From a virus (taxonomy: Duplodnaviria > Caudoviricetes), in IMG/VR virus record IMGVR_UViG_2773857766_000003, positions 1 through 64,000 of that record: a stretch of 64,000 nucleotides of DNA, one strand, 5' to 3'. A model generated the notes under the pieces. That model was not told the origin of the DNA. It saw nothing but the letters and a program-made list of their open reading frames with translations, and searched no databases. A program made the translations under genes and the position numbers. Within the stretch, counting starts at the first letter, position 1. Each line of letters begins with the position of its first letter. Below, in pieces: positions 31,401 through 61,436 of this stretch.

Positions 31401-32606
31401 CTCCTCTCGCGCGGCGGCACGCTCCACGCGCTCGGCCAGCACCGCCCGTTCGACCTTCTGCTCTTCGCTCAGGCCCACGCTGCCGTCGATGACCTCCAGC
31501 TCCGCCAGCCGCGTGACAGCCGCGGCCGTGTCGGCAGCGTCAGCCGCCGGGCCCGAGCGGCGCGCCGGCTGGTCCGGCAGCGAGTCGGGGAGCATGTCTT
31601 CCGCAGGCGTGCCCGCCTCTGCTGGTGGCGTGCCCTCTTCCGTCTTCGCAGCGGCGGCATCACCGCGGCGCAGCGCGGTCATAGCGCCCGACACGCCCGC
31701 GCCCGGCGCCGAACCGATGGCCGTTTCCACGGCTGTGCGGCCTACGTTCCGGGATAGCGGCCGCTGGTCGATGTCGCTGGCCTGGTAGTTCGTCGCGACC
31801 TGGGGCAGCACCTCCTCCGCCTGCTCGCCCAGCAACTCCGCCGCCACCGAGCGCGCCCCGGCCGCCAGCCCGCCACGGGCGCCGCCGCCGCCCACCACGG
31901 CGTGCTCAAGCCCGATCTTCCCGGACAGGAAGCCGGTGGCCGCGCCAACGGCGGCCGGAATGCGCGAGCGCTCAAGCGCCATGCGCTCCGCCTCCTCGCG
32001 GCTATGGCCCTTCTTCACGAGCGCGTCGCGGATGTCCTCGAAGGCCTCGCCCCGGGCTCCACCAGCATTGAGCACGGCATTGGTCACGCCCGCCGCCGTG
32101 GTGGCCGTGCCCGCCGCGACGGCCGCGCTGGCGCCGCCCGCGAGACGCGCGACCTGCGCCGCCTTGGCCGCGGCCACGCCCGGGAGCATGCTGGGCAGGT
32201 TGGTGGTGACGAACCGCGCCGCCAGCGCCGGATCGCTGCTGTAGGCCTTCGCGGCGGCCACGGCCTGGTCCACGATGGAATCCTGGTTCGCCTGCGCGAT
32301 CTGGGCGTCCGCGTCGGCGACCTTGCGGCGCAGGGCCTCGCTCTGCTCCCCGCGCCAGTGGTCGGCATTGTCCCGGAAGAAGGACGCAACCCCGGACTGC
32401 GGCGCGAACAGGTTGGGCACAGCCCCGGCGATGTTGTTCACGCCCTCGGCCAGCTGCACCACGGTATCGGTCGCTGCCTCGCCCCAGGTGCGCTCTGCGG
32501 GCTTCTTGGGCTGGGGCCTGAAGCCGGCCATCTCGAAAAGGTCGGAGCCGCCGCCGGCCGCAGCATCGCCATCACCTCGCGCCATCGCGAGCAAATCCTG
32601 GGACAT
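22401..32606 (-). CDS. Giant (~3400 aa) polyvalent internal virion/ejection protein
   Basis: ParB-like (IQNRDR..NGRTAG), ART-like (FKKWFGDSKV..PLVMYRG), LPD23-like (TGWHRGVDGRWRFEISD, HELQH), second zincin (HEALGH), LPD38-like C-terminus (TVNFNRKG, YAFLNAAIQG). Start MSQDLL follows GAGG. Confidence 0.85.
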   Translation of the reverse strand: MSQDLLAMARGDGDAAAGGGSDLFEMAGFRPQPKKPAERTWGEAATDTVVQLAEGVNNIAGAVPNLFAPQSGVASFFRDNADHWRGEQSEALRRKVADADAQIAQANQDSIVDQAVAAAKAYSSDPALAARFVTTNLPSMLPGVAAAKAAQVARLAGGASAAVAAGTATTAAGVTNAVLNAGGARGEAFEDIRDALVKKGHSREEAERMALERSRIPAAVGAATGFLSGKIGLEHAVVGGGGARGGLAAGARSVAAELLGEQAEEVLPQVATNYQASDIDQRPLSRNVGRTAVETAIGSAPGAGVSGAMTALRRGDAAAAKTEEGTPPAEAGTPAEDMLPDSLPDQPARRSGPAADAADTAAAVTRLAELEVIDGSVGLSEEQKVERAVLAERVERAAAREEELEAIGETPEEAAGAAAPRPEAAPAAEAAQPGDASAAGASQDGSQLQQELRAVAQRSSGDTRRNAVELLARLEGGGMPAHVQRFVEREAAELVATAQAAPAEAAGAAPGAAAAPTAPDRLTPQERQEFERAYRRPVADPLGELQDRVRAGSAYTQAGDVQQLRDQLEDAWLELNVATETQQPAAAPAQIDGEAIHRVDAQLRTRRIRDALQNLLDEDVGNTVQIVGRLDGALEKIGEPGLDDGERQAVRRVADAYFGFRGARERSPLPKPVERAEDWGADNSSMEALIQERGAPRARSRDRSGYAPAAESARSTAAAPAVDAFDPGAVRAKTWPQFVAERGENVARLRRGSPAWDRLQNEWAAVKTKRAGTNPEGTGAVGAATPEIQNRDRARPASVVQMQGMAQSPDYMRLGPSRSPETGAPMVFAVGDQVHAAHAIGRGDTAVMSDGQRVPFQYAVMEAGDVQPSNFADGGVNPLFDAAHPGTVKALNNGRTAGLRAAYERGTADSYRQELMADSAMHGIDPQVIAGMRAPMLVRLYSERDNQANMGAKSQSQALGLSAAEQAATDAALLDTGVLDVLEAGDLAGAANRDFARAFVGKLQAEGQDVAGMLDAGGALSPAGVVRLQAALVHRAYSDGDLVESMFGSTDNDIRAIGEALKDVAGEWANLRQAAAAGAVNPQVDVTGNLLQAIRLVQKARRERASLYDAINQVDMVTGDVPDPMTVGVLRMLYSGQYLTRAVGRDRLADSLREYMAAALATRAGGDMFGEQVGPDAILSALSGQPTTQTTNAASPQPSGQSAPAAPQGERGAPGRDPAGRGADEPGQQARRPEPDRAGPRPDEDGGRGEGQDAQDPRGQPDGQGDRGAAEDGRGAVAPDLELSSYTPREVTAREDAQQESAQARAKADAKADADARAERERREVSARMEASAENFELGEDADDALSGQRPMFSRAAAPESEAFKKWFGDSKVTESGKPGGRPLVMYRGSPNENAAPSRPGALIFLSPDPAFAEHYAAGGATYPLYVKAERPFDASRGEGLALWRKYAEETGAASWATSGTERGALPVWQQEPELRKWLDRAGVQYDGIWFAESNGGASLAVLAQAQVKSATGNIGTFDPSNPDIRFSFAGRNARSADLGELERAEAMARSGMSSAVIQQETGWHRGVDGRWRFEISDDTAEFRRAETRPEDLVEVERQVREAATVTQDDELHTAQLDEGDGVLRAYSTTREGALANLVDRVARARFGVEFDIAKVKDGQVEALTDVLRHPALFAAYPFLRGLKVYFRRGRDAREFGSYDETHRAVTLNADRAPGEVLSTLLHELQHAIQYREGFALGGNMDADFTSSVRKTLREMAEGEARAVEAWKAKHPDLMENAEKAAAVVRDALMYESMERLLSYSERDKPSGVFRLIRNEMQWIYNTTHWLDPVAVELQRRFYGMPKSGAKRNAYIRDMAFDAQKWLRSTIAPENLAAFKADERTMKGMIGALRRHADKARAALEPLREQEGRARVAEALERKFEFGSPYDIYRSLAGEVEARTTQARQGLTEAERRARPVQADMDVSPAEAIVVVGGHEMRLPDVQQDRGAPGPADDFDVDAFLRTMQEAPAVPDEAKAQAVARTESAAAAIRSAWANGPEVVVAFDMADPKVPQQVRDADLSQRSRGAGGSPEGFYFGGKVYLLAEQLPRDQDVARVLMHEALGHHGLAGVFGSGLDAVLQQLVQARPAEVRRKAAEYGLDYGDRAQRMQAAEEVLAEMAQARPELGFVQRAVAAVRSWARAHIPGFADLRMTDAEIVRDFILPARGWVERGRQADAAPAAAGGAPALAFSLPADALAQARAKWAGLVDQFVRGGLDETKTYEVLPSSTAVMKMLGLPDLPAHAGVHAMDALYNHGVKPSQMKQILDELANPRMVMVWNKGSRGDASLNFVTSMSNPQGQPFVIAIKPNRGSVKGRFHWVATVTEKQPRAILDMVREGGAMYAGEGAIAGISEAEMREALRFAKEKRGKEARGLMQAIGTSYSLPNLVQRVLYAKDLEAFKGEQAGPAMFSRAPAGAAQAAQPAQGLLARLQDRVRQLTSPEAVDSWLYNWQDKFIDLKRIQDQIKALNGTVSETNDAYRGEELYHKRVAKRTANFLRDEVRPLLAAMNDAKVGMEEFERFLHARHAPEANRVLAERNPSKQELDQKRADAAKTVADLRRQLQHARASGSVISGIQRSLGLAMAEADRWNSAEAFKGTEEDRLSLSGMSDAEAKNVMGGYSPEQRKVMDALATRVDRMNNITLQTLEQYGLMDRLSIEAWRKTYQHYVPLHRDEARPDSKAHPIGQGFSTKGDASKRRTGSNEKVTNILSHLVMQREAALTRGEKNNVMKRLYVLAAQNPDESLWSLELPKKKAIDPDTGLVRTMPDIGARLRDNVLTLRIGGKDKHIIFNERNERAARLALAMKNLDATELDRFTRTMGHLTRWFAAVNTQYNPIFGVLNLARDVQGSLLQLSSTPLAGRQREVFKNIRSNMLDIYRDLRRERRESGAGQGPWARLWEQLQLDGGTTGYRDLYTKPEDRAAALRKALERQGEGGAKAMVRGVGEWLSDFNETLEASTRLATYKAALDAGQSREAAASLAKNITVNFNRKGRNTSVVGSYYAFLNAAIQGNVRMLETLAGPAGRKVMAGGVALGMLSGLAGALIMGGGGADDEWKKIPDFVKERSIIIPLSRQDYVAIPMPLGFHVFPNIGRKLVEFGMHDDPTKSRAGHLADMAMIALNAYNPLGGADNIMQMLAPTPFDPVVALMENKDWTGRQIYKEQRSGLDPKPGHAMGKDSVTPPARWVARLINDATGGNEWQPGKWSPNPDALEYLFGQFTGGVGRELTKAGNMVTAAVTGEELAPHQITLAGRFYGNTRGVNGQSTSYYENLKRVNTSMAEARGRVARGEEAEAVLLDVPLARVDGAASALDKRVSDLVKMRRQIQAGSDPNKRELVKEVNAEIERSMYLLNKAVEDVLAEQRGR

Positions 32607-32712
32607 AGACACACCTCTGAAGTGAACCCTGGAAGGCTGGCAGGCTTGGCACGCAGCCCGTCGATAGGGGTCTGATACAGTTCCCGCGCACGAAAACTCA
32701 GGGGGAAGCAAG

Positions 32713-37633: not shown

Positions 37634-37673
37634 GCCCGCAGGGTGGCAGGCTTGGTACGGAGCCCAGAAACAA

Positions 37674-43887: not shown

Positions 43888-43927
43888 GGCCCGGAATCTG
43901 GCAGGCTTGGCACCGCCGCGGCGCGTG

Positions 43928-44326
43928 CTACAGCCCCGCCGCGTGCGTGAAGATGTCGTCCAGCTCCCGTCGGGTCAGCCCGATGGCGGCACCCAGCTGG
44001 GCCACGAGCTGGCTGTCCCGGCGCACGGTCGGCCGGTAGTCCCATTCGATCTTCGCGCGCGTGCGCTCCGGCTCGGGCATCCCGGCCAGCACCGCCTCCA
44101 CGGCCTGCAGCTTGCCGATGTCGAGCAGCGCGAGCCGGGCTTGGCCCATCGTGACCTCCTCCGGCACGCGAACCACCGGCGCGGGCGGTTCGTAGGGCAG
44201 CGGCGTGTTGCCACGCGCCAGCCAGCCCAGGTAAATCTCGTAGTCGGCATTGCCCCGCACGGGCGGGAACGAAACTTCATCGGCAATGCGGAAGATCATG
44301 TCCCCCGCCGTGAGTCGGTATGGCAT
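43928..44326 (-). CDS. Tail fibre-associated protein
   Basis: GNADYEIYLGW and QARLALL..LDDIF motifs; coupled to the fibre gene. Confidence 0.65.
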   Translation of the reverse strand: MPYRLTAGDMIFRIADEVSFPPVRGNADYEIYLGWLARGNTPLPYEPPAPVVRVPEEVTMGQARLALLDIGKLQAVEAVLAGMPEPERTRAKIEWDYRPTVRRDSQLVAQLGAAIGLTRRELDDIFTHAAGL

Positions 44327-46335
44327 CAGAACTCCGCGTTGATGTTGATCCGCGCATCGCCCGCCAGGACGCACAGGCACGCCTTGCTATCGCCCGCCAG
44401 GCCGGCGCTGGTGCTGGTGAGCACGATGTGGGCACGCTTCGTGCCGGCGGAATTTGCGTAGGGTCGATCGGTGCACGAGGGCGTCCCGCTCCCGATCTGG
44501 AATTGGAAGTTGGCCACGCTGCCGGGAAAACTCAGGCTCGGCGCCACTCGCTTCGTGTCGTACTCCAGCAGTGCCCACACCTGGGAATTGTTGGGAACCA
44601 TGCCCATCGCGTACACATTGGCATTGGCGTTGTTCAGCTGCTCGAAGTACCGCAGGCAGTCGTCCATCTCGTCGCCGATTTGCCGGTGTTCGAACGGCGT
44701 GGCCACCGCCCCCGACTCCAGCCGGAAGCCGGTCAGGGCGAAGACGTTGCCCGCGGTGTCCAGGCAATTCACCTGACTGGATGTGCCGAGGTACAGCCCA
44801 TCGCGCCATGCGCCCGGCTGGGTGTGGTAGGTCGGGCCCACGCCCACGCACCAGCGAACATAAAGCCCCGGACCCCAGGACGTGTTCCAGCCGCCCGCGG
44901 CCGGCAACCCGCCCACCAGGGTGACGGACTTGAACTCCCAGGTGTTCGCATTTTGGACCGAGTATTCCGCCACGAACGACTTATCGAACCCGCCGTTGAA
45001 GAGCGCGAGGCAGTGAACCCCCACCCGAGAGGAGCGCACCCAGAACGACACGGTGAAGGTGACGCCGAAGAGGTCGGCGATGTTGTAGCCCTCGATGATC
45101 TGCTGGAGCCCTGCGGAGTCGCCCCCTTCCATCGCGGGATCTGCCGTCGTCACGGTCAGCCGCGCGCACCGGCGCAAGCCAGGATCGAGAGCCGGGCCGT
45201 CGGTGGCCTGCTCCACCGTAGCCACGGCCGGGGTGTAGGACCCGGTGAACGCGAGCCGATCCACCGGATAGTTTCCCGTGCTGATGGACGCACCAGGGAA
45301 GCTCGTACCACGTTGCGCCACATTGCAACGTCCGTTGATGAGGCGGTTTCGCGTCCCCGCGAGGTGACTGCCGTTGAGGGTCTTCAGCGCCAGGTCGCCG
45401 GTCATCTGGTCGCCGGTCCGGTTGAGCCGCGCGGCGATCGCGGCAGCCTGGAGCACGCTGACGGGCTTCGCCGCGTCGGCCGTGTTGTCCACGCTCCCCA
45501 AGCCGACATCGCCGGGCAGAAGCACCACGTTGCCGCTGCGGCCCGCCACGGACAGCACCGCGTTGACCTGGGCCCCGGGCTGCACGCCCGCCAGCTTCAC
45601 CTTCTCGGCGGTCGAGAAATCCTCCGCGCTCAGCCCCTTGCCGGCCACCACGTCCACCTTCGTGGCGAGCGTTTCCGGCAACCCCATCACCGTGGCCATG
45701 GGCTGCGTGCCAGTGTGGGTACTGCGATCGCGCAACTGCGAGTCCGGTGCGTTCTTCGTGGCCTGTTCGGCAATGCCGGCGAGCTTGGCGAGGTCGGCGG
45801 TGGTGTAGTCGTTGGTGCTCAGGCCCTTGCCCGCCACCTTCTCCACGCGACCCTCCATCTGGGCCACCGTCGCCATGGGCTGGGCGAAGCCCGGGTTCGG
45901 GTAGTTTCCCGACAGCACGCCGCCCGCGGCGCCGGTGGGCGTGCGCGGATCGGACATGCGCGGGTCGGTGGTCTGGGCGTACTGGCTGATCCCGCCGGCC
46001 GTCAGGCGCAGCTCCACCAGGTCGCCGGCCACGTAGGCCCGCGGCGTGGTGCCCTCCTGCCCGCGCAGCACGGTCAGCCGGCACTCGCCCACCACAGAGT
46101 TGTCCACCCCGGTGACGCGCAGGATCTCGTAGTCCGATTCCACGGTGCCGGCGCGCTTGAAGGCGGTCAGCACATACCAGCTGCCACCCGGCGGGTTGAT
46201 GAGCGTGCCGGCGGCGCCGTCGGAGACTCGGAGCACGCCGTAGTCCAGTTCGCCCGCCGGGTTGGCGGTGGCCGGCGCGGCCTTGACGGACGCGATGAAT
46301 TGCGTGGTGAAGTTGTTCAGGTAGAGCTGGGGCAT
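44326..46335 (-). CDS. Tail fibre protein
   Basis: GKGLSTNDYT repeats, DVGLGSVDNTAD, NRLING..QRG, ATPFEHR..CLRYFE. Confidence 0.85.
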   Translation of the reverse strand: MPQLYLNNFTTQFIASVKAAPATANPAGELDYGVLRVSDGAAGTLINPPGGSWYVLTAFKRAGTVESDYEILRVTGVDNSVVGECRLTVLRGQEGTTPRAYVAGDLVELRLTAGGISQYAQTTDPRMSDPRTPTGAAGGVLSGNYPNPGFAQPMATVAQMEGRVEKVAGKGLSTNDYTTADLAKLAGIAEQATKNAPDSQLRDRSTHTGTQPMATVMGLPETLATKVDVVAGKGLSAEDFSTAEKVKLAGVQPGAQVNAVLSVAGRSGNVVLLPGDVGLGSVDNTADAAKPVSVLQAAAIAARLNRTGDQMTGDLALKTLNGSHLAGTRNRLINGRCNVAQRGTSFPGASISTGNYPVDRLAFTGSYTPAVATVEQATDGPALDPGLRRCARLTVTTADPAMEGGDSAGLQQIIEGYNIADLFGVTFTVSFWVRSSRVGVHCLALFNGGFDKSFVAEYSVQNANTWEFKSVTLVGGLPAAGGWNTSWGPGLYVRWCVGVGPTYHTQPGAWRDGLYLGTSSQVNCLDTAGNVFALTGFRLESGAVATPFEHRQIGDEMDDCLRYFEQLNNANANVYAMGMVPNNSQVWALLEYDTKRVAPSLSFPGSVANFQFQIGSGTPSCTDRPYANSAGTKRAHIVLTSTSAGLAGDSKACLCVLAGDARININAEF

Positions 46336-46336
46336 G

Positions 46337-47386
46337 TCACTGCTCCTTGATGGGTACGACCAGTTCCACCTCCTTGACGCGGCCGTCGTTGGTGGTCGCC
46401 GCGATGGAAATCTGGTACTTCGTGCCGCTCTTGCCGCCCGCGTACACCCACACCTTCACGCGTTGGGCCGTGATTGCGTAACTGGGCGGCATGGGCATGG
46501 CCGGCATCACCTTGAGCGCCACGGCCACGATCTCGTCGCCGGGCGGAAACCACTCGGCGAATTCGATGTCGTAGTCCTGCACGTCGGCGGGCTGTTGTGG
46601 GGGGCTGGCTCTGAACATGCTGGTGCCCTGGTCGGTCACATAGAAGGTGGTCATGGTGGGCGGCACGAGGAACGTGCGCGATTCGGGCGCGGGCTCGTCA
46701 AACGGCAACCGCTTGAACACATCGGGGTCGATCTCAATGACCGCTCGCCCGAGCACGGCAACTGGACCACGCGCGCCGACGTGGAAGCGGGCGGTGCCGG
46801 CCGCCGCGGCGCGCAGTAGCACCGCCAGCCGGGCAGAGGTCCGAGTGCGCGTCACGATGAAGGCCTGGGCCCTCGCATCGACAGGCGATCGGACGCGGCG
46901 GCGCGCGAACACCGTGCCGTCCGCAGTGATGCCGGCGAAGGGCGTGGACCGGACCGGGCCACGGCGGACAAGGCGCGTGGCCGGCGAGAGCTTGGCGCGG
47001 GCCGTGCCCGAGGCACCACCCCGCGCCAGGACGTGTGCGCGCAGTCCAATGCTGGCGCGGGCCTTGGCGCTGACCACGCCACGCACAGGCGGCAGCGTCA
47101 CCTTGATGACGGCGCGCCCACGCGCGGCGATCAGCCCATGGACCTCCGCGTGCCCGAGAGCCCCAACGACAGCCGCCCGCGCGATGGCGTCGGCACGGAT
47201 GTGGGCCTCGACCCGGCCCAGGCGGCCCGCCAAGCTGGCAGCAGGCTCGCTGTGCACGCGCGCATAGGCAAGCACACGGCCGCCTGCGCGGATACGTGCG
47301 TAGCCCCGTGCATCAACGCGGACGCGAACAACCTGCTCCCCGGCGGGACCGTTGATCGCAAATCCGTTGAACCTTCCGCGGTTCAC
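46337..47386 (-). CDS. Virion structural protein with C-terminal fibre-adaptor-like domain
   Basis: Ala/Arg-rich repeats, then QPADVQDYDIEF..TNDGRVKE. Confidence 0.6.
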   Translation of the reverse strand: MNRGRFNGFAINGPAGEQVVRVRVDARGYARIRAGGRVLAYARVHSEPAASLAGRLGRVEAHIRADAIARAAVVGALGHAEVHGLIAARGRAVIKVTLPPVRGVVSAKARASIGLRAHVLARGGASGTARAKLSPATRLVRRGPVRSTPFAGITADGTVFARRRVRSPVDARAQAFIVTRTRTSARLAVLLRAAAAGTARFHVGARGPVAVLGRAVIEIDPDVFKRLPFDEPAPESRTFLVPPTMTTFYVTDQGTSMFRASPPQQPADVQDYDIEFAEWFPPGDEIVAVALKVMPAMPMPPSYAITAQRVKVWVYAGGKSGTKYQISIAATTNDGRVKEVELVVPIKEQ

Positions 47387-47404
47387 GTCCTGCCGCCCGC
47401 GCGG

Positions 47405-47821
47405 TTACATCAGCTGCAGGGTGAAGTCCCCCGTCAGCGTCTGGCTGTCCACCACGAACACGTCATTGATCTGGAGCGTGCGCGGGCTGGCCAGCGGCTC
47501 CGAATACATGAGCGTGGCAGTGGGATCGTTCAGGGAGTCGCCCTCCAGGATGCCAATGTGCGTCACCGTGACCTGGGCCCCGCTCACCGGCGGGAACTCG
47601 GCGCGCACCGCGTTGTAGGTGCCACCGTTCACGGGCGAGGCAAACGCGCCGGTGGGCACGCGGCGATACCACGATGCGGCAACCTCGGTTCCGGCCGTGA
47701 AGGCATCGGTAGGGTCGGCCGTGAACAGCGCGAAGTACGGGGTGCGGATCGCAGGGAACGCCTGCTGGCGCAGCGTGGCGTTGATGACCGCATTGGCGAG
47801 GGAGTTGGAGAAACCGGCCAT
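47405..47821 (-). CDS. Virion structural (tail/head fibre-type) protein, 138 aa
   Basis: AGGAGG RBS; MAGFSNSLAN..YFALFTADP..VTHIGI. Confidence 0.7.
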   Translation of the reverse strand: MAGFSNSLANAVINATLRQQAFPAIRTPYFALFTADPTDAFTAGTEVAASWYRRVPTGAFASPVNGGTYNAVRAEFPPVSGAQVTVTHIGILEGDSLNDPTATLMYSEPLASPRTLQINDVFVVDSQTLTGDFTLQLM

Positions 47822-47839
47822 GGAGGCCTCCTGTGGTTT

Positions 47840-47861
47840 CGAGCACTCCAGCGCCCCGGTT
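47840..47861 (-). promoter_or_regulatory. 22-nt leader element AACCGGGGCGCTGGAGTGCTCG (GGA-loop hairpin), copy 1
   Basis: Identical to 51221-51242; lies between the promoter motif and the RBS. Confidence 0.8.
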
Positions 47862-47892
47862 ACGAAAATGTGCTGCCAGGATGGCAGGCTTG

Positions 47893-48522
47893 TCACATGG
47901 TCGGCGCCACCTCGTTGGACGCCTTGACCTGCACGCCGAGCGCGCCCTGGAACAGCTCCAGATGCGAGGCGGCCAGCGCCTGGTTGCCAGCAAATTCGCC
48001 ATCCACGGACCAGGCCCGGAACAGCATGAAGTGGCGCAGCGCATCCAGCCAGCGGGCCGGCACCCATGGCGCGGCGCTCTCGTCCGCCAGATCCACGGCA
48101 GCAGGCGCCACCACCGCACGCACCTTCACGCCCGCGCGGGCCGGCGGGTATACCAGGTACTCCCGCGGCGTGCGCATGTCGTGCATGAAGTGCTGCACCT
48201 CCAGCGCGGGCGTCTGCGAGCGCCAGGCACCGGCCACGGCGTCCAGCGTCCACAGCGCGGTCTTCGTGATGCGGCGCTGCGCGGTGTTGGCGTTGTTGGT
48301 GATGTCGATGAGCGTCAGCACGTCGGGCGGTAGCTCCTGCTGCCAGCCGGCGGCCAGCACCAGCTCGCGGTCCTGCGCCAGCTGGTCGGGCCGGTACTCG
48401 GCGAACGCGCGCTGGGCCGCATTGAAGAAGTCGAGCAGGTCGGCTCGCGTCCAGCGGACGCTCCCCTTGTCCTGCAGTTCGCGCGCCACGTCGTCCAGCA
48501 GCTGCTTTACGTTCAGAGCCAT
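47893..48522 (-). CDS. Head-tail adaptor-like protein
   Basis: LQD..VRWT..LLDFFNAAQ..RPD motif. Confidence 0.7.
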   Translation of the reverse strand: MALNVKQLLDDVARELQDKGSVRWTRADLLDFFNAAQRAFAEYRPDQLAQDRELVLAAGWQQELPPDVLTLIDITNNANTAQRRITKTALWTLDAVAGAWRSQTPALEVQHFMHDMRTPREYLVYPPARAGVKVRAVVAPAAVDLADESAAPWVPARWLDALRHFMLFRAWSVDGEFAGNQALAASHLELFQGALGVQVKASNEVAPTM

Positions 48523-49133
48523 TGCGCCCTCCCCCGCGGCGTGCTCGGCGTGTGCGAGCGCCACACGTCGGTGGTTGCGTCATCGATCGCGGCGCTGAAC
48601 AGCGCGAGCGCCACGGCGGCCTGGTCGGGCCGGTAGTAGTCCGTGCCGGCGGTGGCCAGCAGCTCCGCCTTAGCGCCGTCACGGATCGCCTCGTGGTAGA
48701 GCCGCGCCACACTGTCGGGAACGCTGGTGCCGCGCGTGGAGGGGATGAGCGAGGCCCGCACCTGCACGGTGCCGCCAGCCCCGAGCGCGCCGACGGTGAA
48801 AGAGGCCAGGTCAGTGGTCACGAGGTAGGCGCAACCCGCTCGCGCGTGGCGCCAGGGGTCAGCGGGCAAGCTCCCCTCCTTCGCCACCTCCAGGGGCTTG
48901 CCGTCCAGCGTGGCCGCCTCGATGCGGCGCAGCTCGGCGCCCTGGGGCAGCTCGAACGCGTATTCGGCGAAGGGCGTGCCCGACACATCGACCGGCTCCA
49001 GCCATTCCTGCCACGCGCGCGTCTTCCGCAGGAACTGGCGCGCAGCCCGGTTGATGCACAGGTGGATGAGCGGCGCGGGCGCCGTGGGAGCAGCCAGCAC
49101 CAGCTCGGGCATCCAGTTGTCCCACGATGCCAT
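48513..49133 (-). CDS. Head-tail adaptor-like protein
   Basis: AARQFLRKTRAW motif; position after capsid genes. Confidence 0.65.
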   Translation of the reverse strand: MASWDNWMPELVLAAPTAPAPLIHLCINRAARQFLRKTRAWQEWLEPVDVSGTPFAEYAFELPQGAELRRIEAATLDGKPLEVAKEGSLPADPWRHARAGCAYLVTTDLASFTVGALGAGGTVQVRASLIPSTRGTSVPDSVARLYHEAIRDGAKAELLATAGTDYYRPDQAAVALALFSAAIDDATTDVWRSHTPSTPRGRAQWL

Positions 49134-49139
49134 GGCGCG

Positions 49140-49511
49140 TCAGCCCTTCACCAGGGAGGCAGCACCCGCCTTGCGCACGCGTCCCGTGGGGGCGGTGTTG
49201 TCTTCCTTGGGTAGGCCGTCGCCGGTGGAGGCCGGCACGTCGTCGTCATCGTCGTCCTGGGCGGCTTGGGCCTTCTTCGCCTCGCGTTCGGCAATGCGCT
49301 CCGCGCGCTTGGCGGCCACCTGCTGGAATTTCTGCTCGGCGTCGAACTCTTCCTTGGTCTGGAAGCCTTTGATCTGCAGCTCATCGACGTGATCCTCGTC
49401 CTGGACCTCGCACGACAGAGGGGTGCCCTTGAACACGTACGCGGTGCCGTCGTCCGTGCGGACGGTCAGCTCGCCGGTCTTGCGGGCGGGGAGCGCGGTC
49501 AAAAGAAGCAT
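49140..49511 (-). CDS. Hypothetical virion-module protein
   Basis: GGAG RBS; operon position. Confidence 0.7.
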   Translation of the reverse strand: MLLLTALPARKTGELTVRTDDGTAYVFKGTPLSCEVQDEDHVDELQIKGFQTKEEFDAEQKFQQVAAKRAERIAEREAKKAQAAQDDDDDDVPASTGDGLPKEDNTAPTGRVRKAGAASLVKG

Positions 49512-49526
49512 GGGGTTCTCCGGAGT

Positions 49527-49562
49527 TCAAAAAGGCCCCGCCGGGCGTGAACCCGACAGGGT
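49527..49562 (-). terminator. Terminator after the capsid and decoration genes
   Basis: CCCTGTCGGG-TTCACG-CCCGGCGGGG followed by CCTTTTT on the minus strand. Confidence 0.6.
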
Positions 49563-49589
49563 GGGAAAGACCCTTGCGGGCCAGCACAT

Positions 49590-50048
49590 TCAGGCGTTGG
49601 CGTACACCAGATCGACCGCGAGGAGGCCGGCGGGCGTGCCCGTGCCCACGCCGGTAATCTTCAGCAGCACGCGGCGGTCGTAGTCCTTGGGCGCCACCTT
49701 CGCGAAAGCAGCGGGCGTCAGCTGGACGTAGCCACCGGCCGCGCCGGTGTTGTTGTCCACCACCCAGACGGCGCCGCCGTCCTCGGCGGCCGTGCTGAAG
49801 TCCGTGCCAGCCGCGTTCGCGATACCGATGGAAGCGGTGAAGCCGGCGCCCAGGGCGGCCGGAGCGCGCACGTACAGGTGGACGGGCAGCGTGCCGGCGG
49901 GCAGCACGCCGATGATGCCCACGGTGCCGGCCACATGGTCGGCCGCGACCAGCTGCTGACCGCAGCGGGACACGACCAGCTCCGGGCCGCCGGGGGTGAT
50001 GGCGTTGTCATAGCCCGCCAGTTGGGGGCTCTTGTTGGCGAAAGGCAT
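49590..50048 (-). CDS. Probable capsid decoration/cement protein
   Basis: 152 aa, beta-rich, directly after the capsid gene; AAGGAG RBS. Confidence 0.65.
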   Translation of the reverse strand: MPFANKSPQLAGYDNAITPGGPELVVSRCGQQLVAADHVAGTVGIIGVLPAGTLPVHLYVRAPAALGAGFTASIGIANAAGTDFSTAAEDGGAVWVVDNNTGAAGGYVQLTPAAFAKVAPKDYDRRVLLKITGVGTGTPAGLLAVDLVYANA

Positions 50049-50083
50049 GTTCGACTCCTTCTATGGTTTCAGGGGGGACCGGA

Positions 50084-51199
50084 TCAGCGGGGGGCTGCAG
50101 CGGCATCCACGGCGAACAGGCCTTGGTCGTGGCTCACGCCGTCCCAGTTGAACGTGGTCTTCTTGAAGCCGAAGATGGAGGACGTGGTGATGACCACCTG
50201 GTTCCCGTTGTCGCGGGTTTCTTCGTGCCAGCCGTAGCGCATGCCGGTGCCCGGGCTGCCAAACGCCAGCACCCCCGCCTGTGCGCCCATGAAGAGAGCG
50301 CGCGCGGTGGACACGTTGCCGCCCGCGCCGTGGTTGTTGTGGCGGATGACGTTGCGATGGCTGTGCAGCACCACGTTGCGGTGCATGCCGAGGGCCGATC
50401 GGAACAGCGGAGACTTCGCGCCGAGCGATGCGGCGGCCGCCTTCTGCAAATCCATCCACGCGCCCGTGGAAGTGTCGTTGCGCAGGTCGTCCTCGTGCCA
50501 GGTGTGCATCACCATGACGAAGACCTCCTCGCCGTCCACCACGCACGGCTGCAGAACCGGGATGTTGGTGGAGCCGCCGCCCTGAGTGTCGGCACGGGTG
50601 CGTGCGTCGCCCACGAGCTTCAGCGTCATCTTGTCGGTGGCGTCGATGTTGGCCGTGCTGGTGGCGTCGCCTGCGAACAGCTGGTGGTTGACCGTGGGAG
50701 CGGTCAGCTTGTTGTTCGCCCGGCCTTGGTAGCCCAGCGGCAGCAGGAAGTTCTCGTTCACGCCGCGCGAGCCCGAGAGGTAGGAGAACGACAGTTCGTC
50801 CTGGAAGCGGCCCCACCAGCCAGCCTGCTGCTGCTTGGCCCGCATGCGCAGATCGTGCAGCGTGCGCTTGCGCGACATACGGCCGCCGGTGTTCACGCCG
50901 GCGCGGGCCTGGTCGATATACAGCTCATCGCTGTAGAACTTCTGCGCTTCTTCCTTGCCGGTGAGGGTGTTGTCACCTTCGACCGGCGCCATGCGCAGTT
51001 CGGTCAGCAGGTCGTAGGTGATGAGTTCACCGGCCTCGGATTCCAGTTCCGTGAGGATCTGGATGGGGGTCTTCGCGCCCTGGCCGACGGCCGCGAAACG
51101 GCGGCCGAAATAGGACTGCTGGGACACATCGAGGGCCAAGTCGCCGGAGAAGCGCTTGACGGCACGCGGGCTGTTCACGCCCGTGCTGGTTTTCGCCAT
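50084..51199 (-). CDS. Major capsid protein (N4-gp56/DUF4043-like)
   Basis: GDNTLTGKEE..IDQAR..KRTLHDLR, RALFMGAQA, FGFKKTTF. Confidence 0.88.
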   Translation of the reverse strand: MAKTSTGVNSPRAVKRFSGDLALDVSQQSYFGRRFAAVGQGAKTPIQILTELESEAGELITYDLLTELRMAPVEGDNTLTGKEEAQKFYSDELYIDQARAGVNTGGRMSRKRTLHDLRMRAKQQQAGWWGRFQDELSFSYLSGSRGVNENFLLPLGYQGRANNKLTAPTVNHQLFAGDATSTANIDATDKMTLKLVGDARTRADTQGGGSTNIPVLQPCVVDGEEVFVMVMHTWHEDDLRNDTSTGAWMDLQKAAAASLGAKSPLFRSALGMHRNVVLHSHRNVIRHNNHGAGGNVSTARALFMGAQAGVLAFGSPGTGMRYGWHEETRDNGNQVVITTSSIFGFKKTTFNWDGVSHDQGLFAVDAAAAPR

Positions 51200-51220
51200 G
51201 GAATGCTCCTAGAGAGGATG

Positions 51221-51242
51221 CGAGCACTCCAGCGCCCCGGTT
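51221..51242 (-). promoter_or_regulatory. 22-nt leader element (GGA-loop hairpin), copy 2, in the capsid 5' UTR
   Basis: Identical to 47840-47861. Confidence 0.8.
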
Positions 51243-51252
51243 GAAAAAAACT

Positions 51253-51456
51253 TCAGGCTTTCACGATGGCAGGCTTGGTACGGGCCGGCACCTTCTTGAA
51301 GGAAATTTCCGGCGCCGCGCACACCACCATGCGCGCGGTCTGGCCGGACTTCTCCACCATCTGGATCACCACGCCCGGCAACTCGAGAACGTCCCCGGTG
51401 CGCAGCTCCATGTGGACGCGGCGCACGGTGTCTTGTGAGGTGTTGGCAGTGGTCAT
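51253..51456 (-). CDS. CsrA/RsmA-like small protein
   Basis: VHMELRTGDVLELPGVVIQMVEKSGQTARMVVCAAPEISFKK follows the CsrA five-strand pattern ([41 protein letters not shown]). Confidence 0.7.
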   Translation of the reverse strand: MTTANTSQDTVRRVHMELRTGDVLELPGVVIQMVEKSGQTARMVVCAAPEISFKKVPARTKPAIVKA

Positions 51457-52442
51457 CAGCCCCTCAGGTAGCGTTCGCGCTTGTCGGGCGAGAGGCCGGC
51501 CAGCGCGCGCTCGTACTCCAGGCCAGACAGCTTGTCCAGGTCCGAGAACTCGTCGCCGGATGGGTCAGCGTCACCGCCGCCACCGGGCACGTCCGCCAGG
51601 TTGGTGACCACGGCGCTGGCGTCCGGCTTGCGCGGCGCGGGAGCCGCCGTCTTGCCGGTCGCGATGCCATGCAGCGCCACCACGCGTTTGTGGCCTTCCT
51701 CGAGGAACCAGCGGTGCGGCTTCGCGGCGTTCTCCGGGGCGGCGGCCAGCGCTTTCACGAACACATCCAGATCGGCCGCTTTCGCCTGGTCCTTCGCATA
51801 GTCCACCAGGCCCAGCTCCGCCTTCGTCGCGGCGTCTGTGACGAAGGTGTTGATGGCCGACACCCACGCATTCGATTCCGCCTGCTCCTGCATCTCGCGT
51901 GCCACCTGCGCCCGGGTTTTGGCTTCGCGCAGGTCCGCACGCTGTTCCTGCAACTCGTCCAGTTTGGCGTGGTACTCGGACGCATCCACCTCTCCGTTGT
52001 CGAACTTCGTGCGCAGGTCGGTCAGCGCGGCCTTGTTGGCTGCCACCTTGTCATCGTAGTCCGCGGGCAGCTCGGCCTTGTAGGTGGGATGCGGAGCTGG
52101 GGCCGGCGCGGGCTTGGCACCGGGGACTGCCGCTGCATCTTCAGCTGGCGCGGGCGCTGCAGCAGGCGCGGGCGCATCCGCCGCTGCAGCTGCAGGAGCT
52201 GGCGCAGGCGTAGGCGAAGGGGCTGCAGCCTGGGCAGGTGCGGGCGCGGGCGCGGCAGCGCGGCCCTTCTCGCCTTCGCCCTCGCCCTCGCCGCCCTCTT
52301 CGTCATCGTCTAACTCGCCGCGGCCAATCTCACGCAGTGCAGCGTCGTTGTCCTCGTCGGGGTTGTAGTCGTCGTCTTCCATCGCCGCGCGCTCGGCGTC
52401 GGAGAGCAGGCGCAGGCGATCGTCGTCCTTGTCCATGGTCAT
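51456..52442 (-). CDS. Scaffolding protein
   Basis: Acidic N-terminus, Ala/Pro linker, coiled coil; lies upstream of the capsid gene. Confidence 0.75.
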   Translation of the reverse strand: MTMDKDDDRLRLLSDAERAAMEDDDYNPDEDNDAALREIGRGELDDDEEGGEGEGEGEKGRAAAPAPAPAQAAAPSPTPAPAPAAAAADAPAPAAAPAPAEDAAAVPGAKPAPAPAPHPTYKAELPADYDDKVAANKAALTDLRTKFDNGEVDASEYHAKLDELQEQRADLREAKTRAQVAREMQEQAESNAWVSAINTFVTDAATKAELGLVDYAKDQAKAADLDVFVKALAAAPENAAKPHRWFLEEGHKRVVALHGIATGKTAAPAPRKPDASAVVTNLADVPGGGGDADPSGDEFSDLDKLSGLEYERALAGLSPDKRERYLRG

Positions 52443-52471
52443 GTTTGGCTCCAGATTCGAAGTTGTGTGGG

Positions 52472-53119
52472 TCAGGCTTTGGGAGGTGCACCACAGCCGG
52501 CCAGAGGCAGGCGAGCCACAAGCAGGCAGAAGATGTGCAGCAGCAGCGATACCGGCACCTCGGCAGCCTTGCCGCTCGCAGAGCGCGCGTCTTCAGAAAG
52601 GCGCAGCGCATGGAGCCTGTCGGCAGTGGTTCCATCGCCCTGGGTCAGGCCGTTGGCGAACTGGGCATGTGCGGCGGCGGACTTGCGCTGGATCTCGCGC
52701 TCGATCCAGTCGGCGCCGGGGTCAAGTACCGGCAGATTGATGGACGGAGCGCCCGACAGCTTGGCCCCCACACCGATCAACGCATAGACCAGCGCCGAAT
52801 TTGCATCGACGTGGATAGGCGACTTCTTCGCCGCTTCGGCCTTCGTCGCCTGCCCCTTCTGGTAGGGCATCCACTCGCAGTAGGGGTAGGACGGAACCGG
52901 TTGCCCCTCCTGCACCAATTCGACACAGCGAAAGCTGTGGACCGCACCGTCGGAGTCGAACACCGACAGATTCACGCGGCCGTCGTCCAGGACGCTCGTG
53001 ATGATCGCGGCGCAAGGCTGCTCGCCGGGCTGACGGGTGAAGCTCGTCGGCCCGCGATGCTTCGAGAGATGAAACCAGACGACCCTACCGACGGTAGGCT
53101 GGATGATGGGATTGGTCAT
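52472..53119 (-). CDS. Conserved phage hypothetical protein
   Basis: PTVGRVVWF..AAIIT..VNLSVF motif; start MTNPII follows the promoter motif. Confidence 0.65.
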   Translation of the reverse strand: MTNPIIQPTVGRVVWFHLSKHRGPTSFTRQPGEQPCAAIITSVLDDGRVNLSVFDSDGAVHSFRCVELVQEGQPVPSYPYCEWMPYQKGQATKAEAAKKSPIHVDANSALVYALIGVGAKLSGAPSINLPVLDPGADWIEREIQRKSAAAHAQFANGLTQGDGTTADRLHALRLSEDARSASGKAAEVPVSLLLHIFCLLVARLPLAGCGAPPKA

Positions 53120-53213
53120 GCGATGTGCTGCTGTAGTTGTTGGCACGCGTGAAGATGGCAGGCTTGGTACGGCGGCAACCGCCGCTCGCGAGCTGTCTTC
53201 AGCCCAGGCCGCG

Positions 53214-53561
53214 CTACTGACACGCCTCGCAGCCGCCCTCGCCCGACAGGTCGCAGGCCTTCCCCAGAGCGAAGTCGGCAGGATCCGGAGCGCTCGGCCC
53301 GGCTGCCGCCATCTCCTCGGCGGTGGGTGTCCCGCTCGACGGGCGGCGGCCACGAGTCACCGTGGTGGTGGTCACGACACGGCCGTGGTCGCTGTCATGC
53401 TCCGAGACCACCCCCTGCCCAATTCGTCCAGCCAGGAACAGGCGCGAGTGCGCCAGCTCCTGCACCGCATCGACCACGTAGGGCTGCACGGGCTCATGCT
53501 CGCCGACACCTCGCACGGTGATGCCGATGGTCAGGTGAAACTCGGTTTCTTGATGGGTCAT
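53214..53561 (-). CDS. Hypothetical protein ending CDLSGEGGCEACQ
   Basis: ATGA-coupled to the Rz-like gene. Confidence 0.6.
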   Translation of the reverse strand: MTHQETEFHLTIGITVRGVGEHEPVQPYVVDAVQELAHSRLFLAGRIGQGVVSEHDSDHGRVVTTTTVTRGRRPSSGTPTAEEMAAAGPSAPDPADFALGKACDLSGEGGCEACQ

Positions 53562-54070
53562 GGTGTGCTTCCCTGGGTGCCGGCATCCGGCCGGCCCGGC
53601 GGGATCACCGGCCAGGCGTCCCGGAGGGTTCGGACATCAGTTGCGTGGCCTGCAGCTTTTGCTGCCATGTCGCCATACGCTGCGCGGCAGTCGTCGTATA
53701 CGGCGTTGACGGCAAGGGCGTAGTCACGGCTGGTGCTGGGGGGAGATGCGGCAAGTCGCCGGGCGGCATCTGCGGCTTGGTCGCGCAGGCCGTCAGAAGC
53801 AACACGCAGCAGGTCAAGCTCCTGGCGCAGCAGCGCCTCACGGGTTCGGGCGGCATTGAGGGCTCCTTGGTACTTGGTGCTGGTCGCGTTCTCGGCGACG
53901 CGGACTCGGGCGTCAGCGGCGCGCTGCGCGGTGCTCACGTCGAGTTGAAAGGTGGTGGCCCGCAGGTTGGCTTCGCCCACCTCCGCATCCATCCGCGCGC
54001 CTTGGAATGCCCAGGCGAGCGCGGCCGCCGCGCCGGCAGCAGCGAGGTGGGTGTAGAGCGAGGGAATCAC
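53558..54070 (-). CDS. Rz-like inner-membrane spanin
   Basis: N-terminal TM plus coiled coil; contains an embedded lipoprotein ORF. Confidence 0.75.
   Translation of the reverse strand: MIPSLYTHLAAAGAAAALAWAFQGARMDAEVGEANLRATTFQLDVSTAQRAADARVRVAENATSTKYQGALNAARTREALLRQELDLLRVASDGLRDQAADAARRLAASPPSTSRDYALAVNAVYDDCRAAYGDMAAKAAGHATDVRTLRDAWPVIPPGRPDAGTQGSTP
53605..53856 (-). CDS. Rz1-like outer-membrane spanin embedded in Rz
   Basis: Lipobox LTAC, Pro-rich, alternative frame. Confidence 0.7.
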   Translation of the reverse strand: MPPEPVRRCCARSLTCCVLLLTACATKPQMPPGDLPHLPPAPAVTTPLPSTPYTTTAAQRMATWQQKLQATQLMSEPSGTPGR

Positions 54071-54288
54071 GGCTGACTCCCAGCGCACGCGGCGTACATG
54101 CGAACGATCGCCTGCGTGTGCAGCCGGCGCTCGAGGCTGGACGCTCCTGCGCGCAGCTCAGGCAGCGGCGGGCAGGGACTGCCCGAGAGTGCGGCCGCGG
54201 CCGACTCCGCCGGGACGGCAGGAGCCTGCGGTGGCGCAGCGCTGCATCCGGCCAGAAGCAGGGCCGCGAGGATGGTGGCGCGGGTCAT
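54067..54288 (-). CDS. Small Pro-rich lipoprotein (second o-spanin-like)
   Basis: Lipobox LAGC; PCPPLP. Confidence 0.7.
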   Translation of the reverse strand: MTRATILAALLLAGCSAAPPQAPAVPAESAAAALSGSPCPPLPELRAGASSLERRLHTQAIVRMYAACAGSQP

Positions 54289-54698
54289 CGGACGGCCTCC
54301 TTCCGGATGCGCTCATTGGCACGCTGGATGGTGGCGTTGATGGCCTTGCGCTCATGCTCAGGCACTGCAGCAGGCACGCCTGCAGCTTTGGCCGCCTTAC
54401 CAGCCGTGGCCGCCGCCGCTTGCGCCGTCTCCGCAGCCGTGGCCGCCGTGTCGGCCGCTGCGGCAGTGAGGTCCGCGGCATGCGCTACGCGACCCGAGAG
54501 CGCGCCCAGGGCAATGCGATTGGCATCCTGCAATCGGGCGATCTCATCGAGGTGGTCCTGCCGGTCTTCGGCCAGCATCTCGCGCATGCGCTCGACGCCC
54601 GCCCAGTAGCCGATGCCGGCCCCGCCACCGACCATTCCAAGAAGCATTGCAGTCCCTGCCAGCACGGCGCGGGCCTGGTGAAGATCAGGTTTTCGCAT
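54285..54698 (-). CDS. TM plus helical protein (second i-spanin-like)
   Basis: N-terminal TM, Ala-rich helix; overlaps the lipoprotein start. Confidence 0.55.
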   Translation of the reverse strand: MRKPDLHQARAVLAGTAMLLGMVGGGAGIGYWAGVERMREMLAEDRQDHLDEIARLQDANRIALGALSGRVAHAADLTAAAADTAATAAETAQAAAATAGKAAKAAGVPAAVPEHERKAINATIQRANERIRKEAVR

Positions 54699-55074
54699 GG
54701 ACTTGCTCCGTCAGTTCGCGCACCTGCGCCTGCAGGCTCGTGATTTCCTCAGTGGCGTGCTGCAGCTGGCGCTGCATGCCCTCCAGTTGCCCCTGCAGCT
54801 TCCCGAGCGCGGTCACTGCCTCGTTTCGCTCCTTGGCGAATTCGTCCGCCCGTTTGTCTGCCTGGGCGCGCGCGGCGCGCTCGGCCTCCAGCAGCTCCTT
54901 GTAGACGTTGATCGCCGACACGCGGCCCGCGTCGTCGGCGCGGTCCGCTGCGCCCCGGCTGAGGTACTGCCGCAAGAACAGGAAGCCACTCGCGATAGCT
55001 GTCATCCCGGCGCCCAGAGCACCGAATGGCCCGCCTGGAAAATTGTTCAAGTCCGGCGAATCCATCGGCATCAC
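54685..55074 (-). CDS. Holin-like protein (one TM plus coiled coil)
   Basis: Follows the putative endolysin. Confidence 0.5.
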   Translation of the reverse strand: MMPMDSPDLNNFPGGPFGALGAGMTAIASGFLFLRQYLSRGAADRADDAGRVSAINVYKELLEAERAARAQADKRADEFAKERNEAVTALGKLQGQLEGMQRQLQHATEEITSLQAQVRELTEQVHAKT

Positions 55075-55493
55075 TCCAGCGCCAGGCGCACGGCCTGTTC
55101 GATGAGGTCATCGGGATACGGTTGCTGTCCGTTCTCGTGCCCGACGATCGCCGACACGATGCGCGCGAGCAGGTTCGCGTCCTGGAGGTCCACCACGTCA
55201 TCGACGCCTACGCCCAGGGCTCGGGCGACCTGACGCGCATAGGACCCGGTGTCGTTTTCGCTGGGCGGCGCCCAGCGGCCGATGATCTTGGCAGGGGTAT
55301 TGAGGCCGTACTTCCGCTGGTACGAGAGCAGCACCTTGGCCAACGCGCGCAGACCCCAGATCGGTGCCGAAAACACCACGAACCGCGGATCGCTACTCTG
55401 GTCCGCGGCCATGCCTTGCCACCGTTCGGTGGTTCGATCGATGTTTCCGGGGTTGTGGTTGCGTATGCCCCGTGGCGTTGGGGTGGTAGTCAT
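55071..55493 (-). CDS. Putative endolysin (P5-like lysozyme fold)
   Basis: RGIRNHNPGNI, WAPPSENDT, HENG motifs. Confidence 0.75.
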   Translation of the reverse strand: MTTTPTPRGIRNHNPGNIDRTTERWQGMAADQSSDPRFVVFSAPIWGLRALAKVLLSYQRKYGLNTPAKIIGRWAPPSENDTGSYARQVARALGVGVDDVVDLQDANLLARIVSAIVGHENGQQPYPDDLIEQAVRLALE

Positions 55494-56182
55494 CGGATGG
55501 ACCTTTCAATGGCGGCGGCCAGCAGCACCGCCAATCTGTCGCTGGCCGCCTGTGTGCGGTGCACGTTGTCGATTACGTCCACGGGGCCGCGGTAGTCCTC
55601 GCCCCACCCTGCGTGTTGCAGCCCCAGCTCCGCCGCCAGGGCGAGAGTCACTGCGTTGAGTTCGGCCCGGCGCGCGACGCGCTCGGGGGTGAAGAGGTCG
55701 GCCACCGGGAGGTCCACGATGCCGGCCAACACCGGTAGTCGGCCCTCCGCGCGCACGATCCGTATGGCCTCCCGCAGGTCCGCGCCGTACTGGGCCGGCG
55801 TGCGCATCTCCAGTGCGTCGTTGAGCCCGGCGGCCAGTACCACCACGCGAGCGGAGCGAGAGACCTGCGCAAACGGCGGCTGCGGGCCGCGCGGGTACGC
55901 GTCTGCCGGAGCGCCTGGCCAGGGCGCCGAATAGCCGGCGATGAGGTCCGCCAGCACCAGGCCCGACGCGCTGCGGTCATCGATCGCCCAGGCCGGGCGC
56001 AACGCCCGGAGGGTGGCCGGCATCGGCGTGGAGATCCCAGGGCCTCGCGCGATGCTGTCCCCGAAGATTTCGATCGATAGGGGCGTGGAACCCCCACCGC
56101 CACCACCGCCGCAGCCCACGAGAAGCCCCAACACCATCGCGAAGACGGCAGGCAGAAGGAAGAGGTATTGAAGCCAGTTCAT
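55490..56182 (-). CDS. SGNH/GDSL hydrolase lipoprotein
   Basis: Lipobox LVGC, GDS, GLND, DNVH blocks. Confidence 0.8.
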   Translation of the reverse strand: MNWLQYLFLLPAVFAMVLGLLVGCGGGGGGGSTPLSIEIFGDSIARGPGISTPMPATLRALRPAWAIDDRSASGLVLADLIAGYSAPWPGAPADAYPRGPQPPFAQVSRSARVVVLAAGLNDALEMRTPAQYGADLREAIRIVRAEGRLPVLAGIVDLPVADLFTPERVARRAELNAVTLALAAELGLQHAGWGEDYRGPVDVIDNVHRTQAASDRLAVLLAAAIERSIR

Positions 56183-58927: not shown

Positions 58928-59000
58928 GGCCGGCAAGATGGCAGGCTTGGTACGGGCTCGGGCCGGGAAATGGTCACCTCGCGGTCGGCCAGAAGCCAGC

Positions 59001-61255: not shown

Positions 61256-61436
61256 GAGCCGAAGCTGTCAGGCTTGGCACGGAGACAGAGCCGAAAAGGC
61301 AACCGCGGGCGCTGACAGTCGCGCAAGGAACCCCAACCCATCCGAGACTAAAGAAAAACTCCCTATAGCCAAAAAAGTGCAGTAGAATCCACAAAACCAA
61401 CTATCCAACCTTTAAACCATATAAGGATGACCTAAC

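Follow-up and report, generated by a model that had tools for sequence, protein, structure and literature searches.

The provirus record IMGVR_UViG_2773857766_000003 of IMG/VR (Duplodnaviria; Caudoviricetes) comprises 78,218 bp, the first 64 kb of which were analyzed here and are referred to as the window. On the minus strand of the window, a gene at the scaffold position is followed by an open reading frame (ORF) for a protein of 67 amino acids (aa), the major capsid gene, four more virion genes and a gp80-like virion gene. An initial annotation of this stretch, made from the letters alone, had described the 67-aa protein as CsrA-like and had proposed that it acts on an identical 22-mer found in the leaders of the capsid gene and of the gp80-like gene. 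The analysis reported here confirms the underlying observation and partly supports its interpretation. The features on which the following sections are based are listed in their order on the minus strand.

51456..52442, minus strand: gene at the scaffold position, upstream of the CsrA-like gene (phrog_8246, E 3.4e-90)
51253..51456, minus strand: gene for the 67-aa CsrA-like protein, between the scaffold-like gene and the capsid gene
51267..51283, minus strand: 17-mer CCGTACCAAGCCTGCCA, 24 nt upstream of 22-mer copy 1 and within the CsrA-like coding sequence at its 3' end
51221..51242, minus strand: 22-mer copy 1 in the capsid leader, hairpin GGGCGC-UGGA-GUGCUC at 51222-51237
51200..51230, minus strand: closed-state helix of the capsid leader, in which GGAGUGCUC (51222-51230) pairs with GAGCAUUCC (51200-51208)
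50084..51199, minus strand: major capsid gene, downstream of 22-mer copy 1 (PF13252, E 1.9e-55; phrog_334, E 1.5e-110)
47882..47893, minus strand: one-mismatch copy ACAAGCCTGCCA of the core of the 17-mer, 20 nt upstream of 22-mer copy 2
47840..47861, minus strand: 22-mer copy 2 in the gp80-like leader, hairpin at 47841-47856
47405..47821, minus strand: gp80-like virion gene (PF23140 'Podophage GP4 fiber I protein gp80', E 6.9e-30; phrog_240 'head protein')

The stop codon of the scaffold-position gene and the ATG of the CsrA-like gene share one base (TGATG, 51454-51458), an overlap that suggests translational coupling of the two genes.

Affiliation of the 67-aa Protein

The CsrA-like character initially assigned to the 67-aa protein was corroborated by profile and structure comparisons. 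Residues 14-61 match PHROG 8397, 'CsrA-like regulator' (E 4.6e-8). A family profile, derived from an alignment of 29 relatives of the protein taken from IMG/VR loci, was compared with the PDB, and its seven best matches are all chains of CsrA, RsmA or RsmE (E 8.1e-6 to 8.2e-5), the alignment spanning residues 7-50 of E. coli CsrA. Among the same 29 relatives, 17 match the Pfam family CsrA (PF02599) at E≤1, the best of them with E 8.2e-8. The AlphaFold2 model of the window protein has a predicted local distance difference test value (pLDDT) of 84.6, and all 13 rows listed through rank 14 of a Foldseek search with this model are CsrA/RsmA/RsmE chains, superposing with a root-mean-square deviation of 0.9-1.5 Å (about 1 Å) over 44-46 residues and template modeling (TM) scores of 0.54-0.81, while the Foldseek E-values are merely 0.014-0.27 because the protein is short. 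Judged from sequence profiles and the predicted model, the 67-aa protein is a strongly diverged CsrA-family protein with the fold of those CsrA, RsmA and RsmE proteins that were characterized with GGA-hairpin operators (e.g., RsmE-hcnA, PDB 2jpp). Its identity to BcepIL02 gp49 is 25% and that to GP4 gp04 is 23%, and a tblastn search with the protein against phage records returned just 36 rows for Mycobacterium phage integrases at E about 5, which are spurious.

CsrA-like genes in such phages have been annotated before, and what is new here is the candidate target element. Annotated members of the same family at the same place upstream of the capsid gene include PHROG 8397, BcepIL02 gp49 and GP4 gp04 from podophages of Burkholderia and Ralstonia, Pavtok gp9 and CSP3 orf23. 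Records and papers name no target for these genes, just as the initial annotation had stated for Bcep22-like phages, and our literature search found no paper naming a capsid-leader target of a phage CsrA-like protein. In the available parts of the respective reports, CSP3 orf23 is a CsrA-like gene upstream of the capsid gene with no target given (PMC10269572), a CsrA-like gene is described for DC1, likewise with no target given (PMC8310193), and 30 csrA-positive phages are catalogued, with Burkholderia hosts said to be without chromosomal csrA (PMC7366521). The E. coli phage PTXU04 encodes a CsrA homologue, as does the window, and the accessible portion of the corresponding study states that its knock-down by CRISPRi-ART resulted in smaller plaques and that its role was previously unexamined, and reports no RNA target (PMC11879866). 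Two further family members occur without a corresponding label, namely SopranoGao_25 and POI1126 gp06, the latter being a weak match (E 0.0022).

An Identical Hairpin in Two Late-Gene Leaders

The 22-mer AACCGGGGCGCTGGAGTGCTCG is present at exactly the two minus-strand sites listed above, where the initial annotation had placed it, with zero copies expected. Allowing up to three mismatches did not reveal any further copy in the window (100 shuffles averaged 0.00), nor does the whole 78,218-bp record contain a copy beyond the two. The capsid ATG (51199) follows the end of copy 1 by 21 nt, and for copy 2 the distance to the ATG of gene 47405-47821 is 18 nt. Within the 22-mer lies a 12-nt box, GCGC-UGGA-GUGC, the general form of which is GCGC-WNGA(N)-GUGC, and the local hairpin GGGCGC-UGGA-GUGCUC can indeed fold, with a predicted energy of -7.9 kcal/mol. 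A second GGA resides in the Shine-Dalgarno (SD) sequence of each leader, again as initially described (AGGAG at 51206-51210 for the capsid gene, AGGAGG at 47827-47832 for the gp80-like gene). A distance of 19-22 nt between two GGA sites can be bridged by a CsrA dimer. Both window leaders exhibit precisely this layout of CsrA-type operators, i.e., a loop GGA in a short hairpin and an SD GGA located 19-22 nt downstream, which they share with operators of the CsrA/RsmA/RsmE type.

None of the Rfam 15 covariance models matched either strand of region 47000-52600 at E≤10. A promoter consensus scan of region 44000-56000 yielded no sigma-70 promoter-like site, and none of the 11 terminator-like sites in the same region coincides with a 22-mer copy. 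Reading of the start region of the scaffold-position gene 51456..52442 showed that the box is absent there in the window phage. The initial annotation had also related the sequence ACAGGAUG in the leader of a second, orphan scaffold gene to the repeated element. This sequence is present at 1030-1037, but it is the ordinary SD sequence of the GTG-started scaffold paralogue and is not accompanied by a hairpin box, which weakens that part of the proposal.

Conservation of the Box in Related Phages

The core GCGC, a loop of four to five nucleotides and GUGC were found in nearly all capsid leaders of 75 IMG/VR loci, the capsids of which are 56-98% identical to the window capsid. When 84 loci (664,803 bases) were oriented by their capsid gene and searched with the pattern GCGC[AT][GTA]GA[N]GTGC, 124 sense matches vs. 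one antisense match were obtained, while the control pattern, read backwards, gave two sense matches and one antisense match. The sense matches represent 76 unique contexts, comprising 46 capsid leaders, 16 gp80-like leaders, eight starts at the scaffold position, where the loop AUG opens an ORF of at least 200 codons, and six others, which are made up of a single site within the coding sequence of the adaptor, shared by four close relatives, and two F116 sites. Placement of the box before the gp80-like gene is found in the clade to which the window belongs; placement over the scaffold start codon is found in other clades. In all 35 capsid leaders read from the window clade the 12-nt box is identical, with differing flanks, and it precedes the gp80-like gene in 31 of the 33 loci that cover the start of this gene. 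The two exceptions are L072, which has GCGC-UGGU-GCGC, and BcepIL02, which is without a leader at this position.

Analysis of the whole leaders of 29 lineages with RNAalifold recovered the four-pair core alone, with 28 G-C pairs and one compensated A-U pair. The letters of the stem, GCGC/GUGC, including its G-U pair, are almost invariant among these lineages. When the hairpin is taken as six pairs, pairing is retained in 93.7% of cells and compensatory changes are seen in three pairs, and none of 500 shuffles reached the observed score. On this comparative evidence, the repeat is a genuine RNA motif that is specific to one strand and maintained in the leaders of late genes.

Two matches in the window stand apart from the late leaders. 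A third box-like match, GCGC-UGGAG-GUGC, lies at 48195-48207 on the minus strand inside the adaptor coding sequence; of the 84 loci, only that of the window and those of three close relatives have it, and coding may have produced it by chance. The sole antisense match in the 84 loci, GCGCATGACGTGC at 45450-45462 on the plus strand of the window, is opposite to the late-gene strand and is probably due to chance.

Competing Structures of the Capsid Leader

In its minimum-free-energy structure, the window capsid leader forms a longer, closed helix (-21.3 kcal/mol) in place of the local hairpin. Within this helix, GGAGUGCUC, from within the box-containing 22-mer, pairs with GAGCAUUCC, by which part of the SD sequence is covered up to the base before the AUG. 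The same type of fold, in which the box contributes its loop and 3' strand to pairing with sequence at or beside SD and AUG, is the minimum-free-energy structure in all six capsid leaders folded, with energies of -28.1 kcal/mol for L030 (z -4.69), -28.0 kcal/mol for Pavtok and -27.9 kcal/mol for BcepIL02. In the gp80-like leader, the minimum-free-energy fold retains the local hairpin. According to these predictions, the capsid leader has two competing structures.

As the long-range helix shifts register between clades, it was tested by duplex energies rather than with RNAalifold. The partner sequence varies by clade and fits its own box. In 29 lineages, duplexes between box and ribosome-binding region have a mean energy of -15.4 kcal/mol for cognate combinations vs. 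-11.6 kcal/mol for non-cognate ones, a difference reached in none of 20,000 permutations; as the lineages are related, this comparison somewhat overstates their independence. The alternative pairing over the ribosome-binding site that the initial annotation had suggested for the capsid leader reappeared both as minimum-free-energy helix and in the cognate duplex comparison. Sequence covariation supports the local hairpin as well as the competing helix between box and ribosome-binding region.

Co-occurrence of Box and CsrA-Like Gene

Of 70 IMG/VR loci, 69 have a CsrA-like ORF upstream of the capsid gene, and the remaining one (L058) offers 34 nt of upstream sequence only. In a complementary, motif-first search, IMG/VR was queried with a 15-mer of the box and 57 loci were retrieved. 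In 36 of them the match is closely preceded, on the same strand, by a CsrA-like ORF (E≤3.1e-10), and in 35 of these it is also followed by a capsid homologue. The sequence of one locus breaks off 58 nt upstream of the match, and the remaining 20, which contain neither a CsrA-like ORF nor a capsid homologue, look like intra-coding matches.

A small and clade-structured sample of 13 phage records, 12 of them whole and one being the 64-kb window, was compared on the basis of related capsids. All seven records that contain the gene have boxes on the late-gene strand, 18 in total, one of which is inside coding sequence. The window accounts for three (plus the antisense match), BcepIL02 for one, Pavtok for two, POI1126 for five, SopranoGao for two, F116 for three and GP4, under a relaxed pattern, for two. 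Of the six gene-negative records only one has a box, namely 933W with a single copy. Neither of the computable outcomes that would have spoken against the initial proposal was encountered, the fold being CsrA-like and no phage having been found to keep the element in the absence of the gene. Several of the gene-negative phages infect Vibrio, E. coli or Microcystis; their lower G+C content also lowers the number of boxes expected by chance. In POI1126, boxes precede the capsid gene, gp21, gp26, the giant gene gp30 and gp32. The endolysin gene of Pavtok has its start overlapped by the second box of this phage, and both phages have annotated start codons inside the box.

Phage F116 is the most informative case in this respect. 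The gap before its capsid gene measures 12 nt and provides no leader, and its gene 47 (L081 6259-6465), annotated as 'unknown' and located away from the capsid gene, joins the late CsrA-like family with E 2.8e-15. One F116 box lies in the 3' end of gene 47 before gene 48, and the other two precede genes 49 and 53. A second CsrA-type gene, encoding a canonical CsrA, is found elsewhere in the F116 genome (E 1.4e-23).

A Promoter-Like 17-mer and RNA Contigs

Both 22-mer copies are preceded by a promoter-like sequence. A 12-nt core, CCAAGCCTGCCA, of the 17-mer CCGTACCAAGCCTGCCA occurs in six exact and three one-mismatch copies, all of them on the minus strand and before late genes. The motif search placed these cores at the following positions.

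61266-61277, minus strand
58939-58950, minus strand
53156-53167, minus strand
51267-51278, minus strand, before the capsid leader
47882-47893, minus strand, before the gp80-like leader
43899-43910, minus strand
37644-37655, minus strand
32638-32649, minus strand
1060-1071, minus strand

For four copies of the 17-mer, an ATG lacking an SD sequence lies 10-11 nt beyond the end of the motif, an arrangement suggestive of near-leaderless messages. In relatives the motif additionally precedes the scaffold gene. The reading frame across the capsid-gene copy changes from clade to clade, so that this copy is conserved as nucleic acid and not as protein. The 17-mer is probably a phage-specific late promoter signal; as seven of its nine copies are without a box, the box is a separate signal. 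In relatives with other hosts a sigma-70-type promoter, read by eye, occupies the place of the 17-mer. Assignment of the 17-mer to sigma-54 was also considered by eye and rejected: the spacing to the four ATGs fits -24/-12 elements but the GG doublet is absent.

The prophage region 47300-52500 is present as assembled contigs in the RNA-seq runs X2, X3, X9 and X10, which carry one organism label. Two runs span the whole stretch in one contig, for which DNA carry-over is possible. Contigs from two studies stop at 47856, inside copy 2, and one stops at 51231; assembled RNA contigs allow no claim of transcript start or end.

A Candidate Translational Operator and Its Alternatives

Taken together, the comparisons tip the balance toward the 12-nt box being a translational operator, on late virion mRNAs, of the phage's own 67-aa CsrA-family protein. 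The protein, presumably as a dimer, would bind the hairpin form of the leader and perhaps also take in the SD GGA 19-22 nt downstream; binding would shift the leader between its closed and open states, and this shift would set the translation of capsid and gp80-like proteins. For the capsid leader we lean slightly toward activation, the box being kept out of the closed helix. Where the box is near or over the start site, as in the gp80-like leader of the window and at the scaffold starts of other clades, we lean toward repression. Precedents exist for either direction. CsrA acts as an activator through RNA remodeling on ymdA and moaA, and by analogy a protein binding one of two competing leader folds could open a sequestered start. 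An operator hairpin that comprises a start codon is known from the MS2 coat protein and the replicase gene, and an AUG-holding hairpin such as that at the scaffold starts of eight lineages would, if the analogy applies, close upon binding. Unlike the CsrA/RsmA/RsmE systems, the putative regulator is phage-encoded and very diverged, and its candidate targets are the phage's own late mRNAs. The phage box further differs from ordinary operators of these proteins in that its stem is nearly invariant and its loop is ANGA in some clades.

A number of observations weigh against this operator reading. The window protein matches zero Pfam families at E≤1, the CsrA family PF02599 included. The isolated hairpin is no more stable than its shuffles (z -0.28). 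The near-invariant letters of the stem are unlike ordinary CsrA sites, and another reader could be responsible for them. While the GGA loop proposed initially is found in both window leaders, it is not universal: relatives have AUGA, AAGA, AUGAA, AUGAC, AAGAC or AGAAG instead, and such non-GGA loops occur despite a kept CsrA-like gene in L044, L045, L055, L057, L061, L064, Pavtok, SopranoGao and POI1126. Canonical CsrA needs GGA. In-silico locking of the hairpin decreased the accessibility of the SD sequence in the window leader from 0.21 to 0.02, and among 14 capsid leaders accessibility rose in ten and fell in four, an inconsistency on account of which the model supports neither direction of control. 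Co-occurrence of gene and box, finally, largely reflects one inherited gene block and therefore does not represent many independent events.

A further observation on this side concerns arginine 44 (R44) of E. coli CsrA, an important basic residue. The aligned position is occupied by K in the window protein and by L, H, C, N or A among relatives. Co-variation of this residue with the loop was considered, as five lineages with non-GGA loops have L, H or A, but was dropped as evidence in view of exceptions: R is kept in Pavtok and L045, which have AUGA-type loops, and N is present in F116 gp47, the loop of which is GGA. As far as the alignment goes, the R44-aligned residue does not track the loop sequence.

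It appears rather unlikely, although several of the data would fit, that box and closed helix form a self-contained device of the 5' untranslated region, serving as stabilizing stem-loop, translation damper or RNase site without participation of a phage protein, and that the CsrA-like protein has other targets, e.g., host mRNAs. The closed helices are strong and constitute the minimum-free-energy structure of each of the six folded capsid leaders. In relatives whose promoters, read by eye, are of the sigma-70 type, the start of the box follows the -10 hexamer by 13-18 nt, close to the 5' end of the message, and loops other than GGA persist in relatives. The published proposals on phage CsrA proteins, in the parts of the texts available, concern host manipulation (PMC11879866; PMC8310193), and the stop of RNA contigs from two studies within copy 2 gives a weak hint of an RNA end. 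A pure stability element, however, would need neither invariant letters nor a fixed loop, the same 12-13-mer recurs in two to five late-gene leaders per genome with differing downstream sequence, and some sites, e.g., the gp80-like leader, are without a closed helix. In F116 the box accompanies the CsrA-like gene and not the capsid gene, and Burkholderia hosts are reported, in the available part of the catalogue, to be without a Csr system that could be hijacked (PMC7366521).

A role of the box at the level of DNA or transcription, as part of a late promoter, initially transcribed region, operator or antitermination site, is improbable. The location of both window copies 20-24 nt downstream of the promoter-like 17-mer, the corresponding position behind sigma-70-like promoters in relatives and the conservation of the box letters as sequence would be in line with it. 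Yet most copies of the 17-mer are without a box, the conserved G-U pair is a mismatch in DNA, and the outer pairs covary as an RNA helix, as does the partner near the AUG with the box. The loop AUG that serves as start codon at the scaffold position in eight lineages and the annotated starts inside the boxes of Pavtok and POI1126 rather fit control of translation. That the two identical copies are a recent duplication without function can practically be dismissed even though their likeness reaches 5' to AAGCCTGCCATC in both and the unit may have been copied as a module, because relatives with capsids 78-98% identical keep the box at both sites while the flanks differ in most columns (21 capsid and 16 gp80-like unique contexts in the window clade), so that both copies are under selection.

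Extending the operator reading beyond the window, we put forward, tentatively and with considerable doubt, that podophages of the Bcep22, GP4, Pavtok and F116 types might possess, in their late CsrA-family proteins, a dedicated protein-RNA switch for virion morphogenesis. By binding one and the same box, such a protein would open the self-closed capsid leader, shut scaffold and fiber starts in or beside the box and set timing and ratio of head proteins, in hosts that perhaps have no Csr system. Many phages have small genes annotated as CsrA-like, for the function of which an explanation is lacking, and a conserved, strand-specific box in the phages' own late leaders provides a concrete candidate target and a candidate cis-element regulon for them. 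As the family is large, with 1,192 representative protein clusters at E≤0.001 and 212 at E≤1e-10, a confirmed mechanism would apply widely. A protein-controlled, bistable leader, if it exists, would join the known modes by which phages regulate capsid synthesis.

Further Features of the Window

The scaffold-position gene has a second copy in the window. Positions 39-1012 (minus-strand ORF 194-1024) correspond to 51467-52427 with a DNA identity of 71-85%; the ORF begins with GTG and is preceded by a copy of the promoter-like motif. At least 31 copies of a 12-nt tandem repeat are located at 16284-16800, inside the minus-strand ORF 15990-17396. Another copy of the promoter-like motif is followed, on the minus strand, by a giant ORF (22401-32711; 3,436 aa), in a position like that of the giant DarB-like or methylase genes of Pavtok and POI1126.

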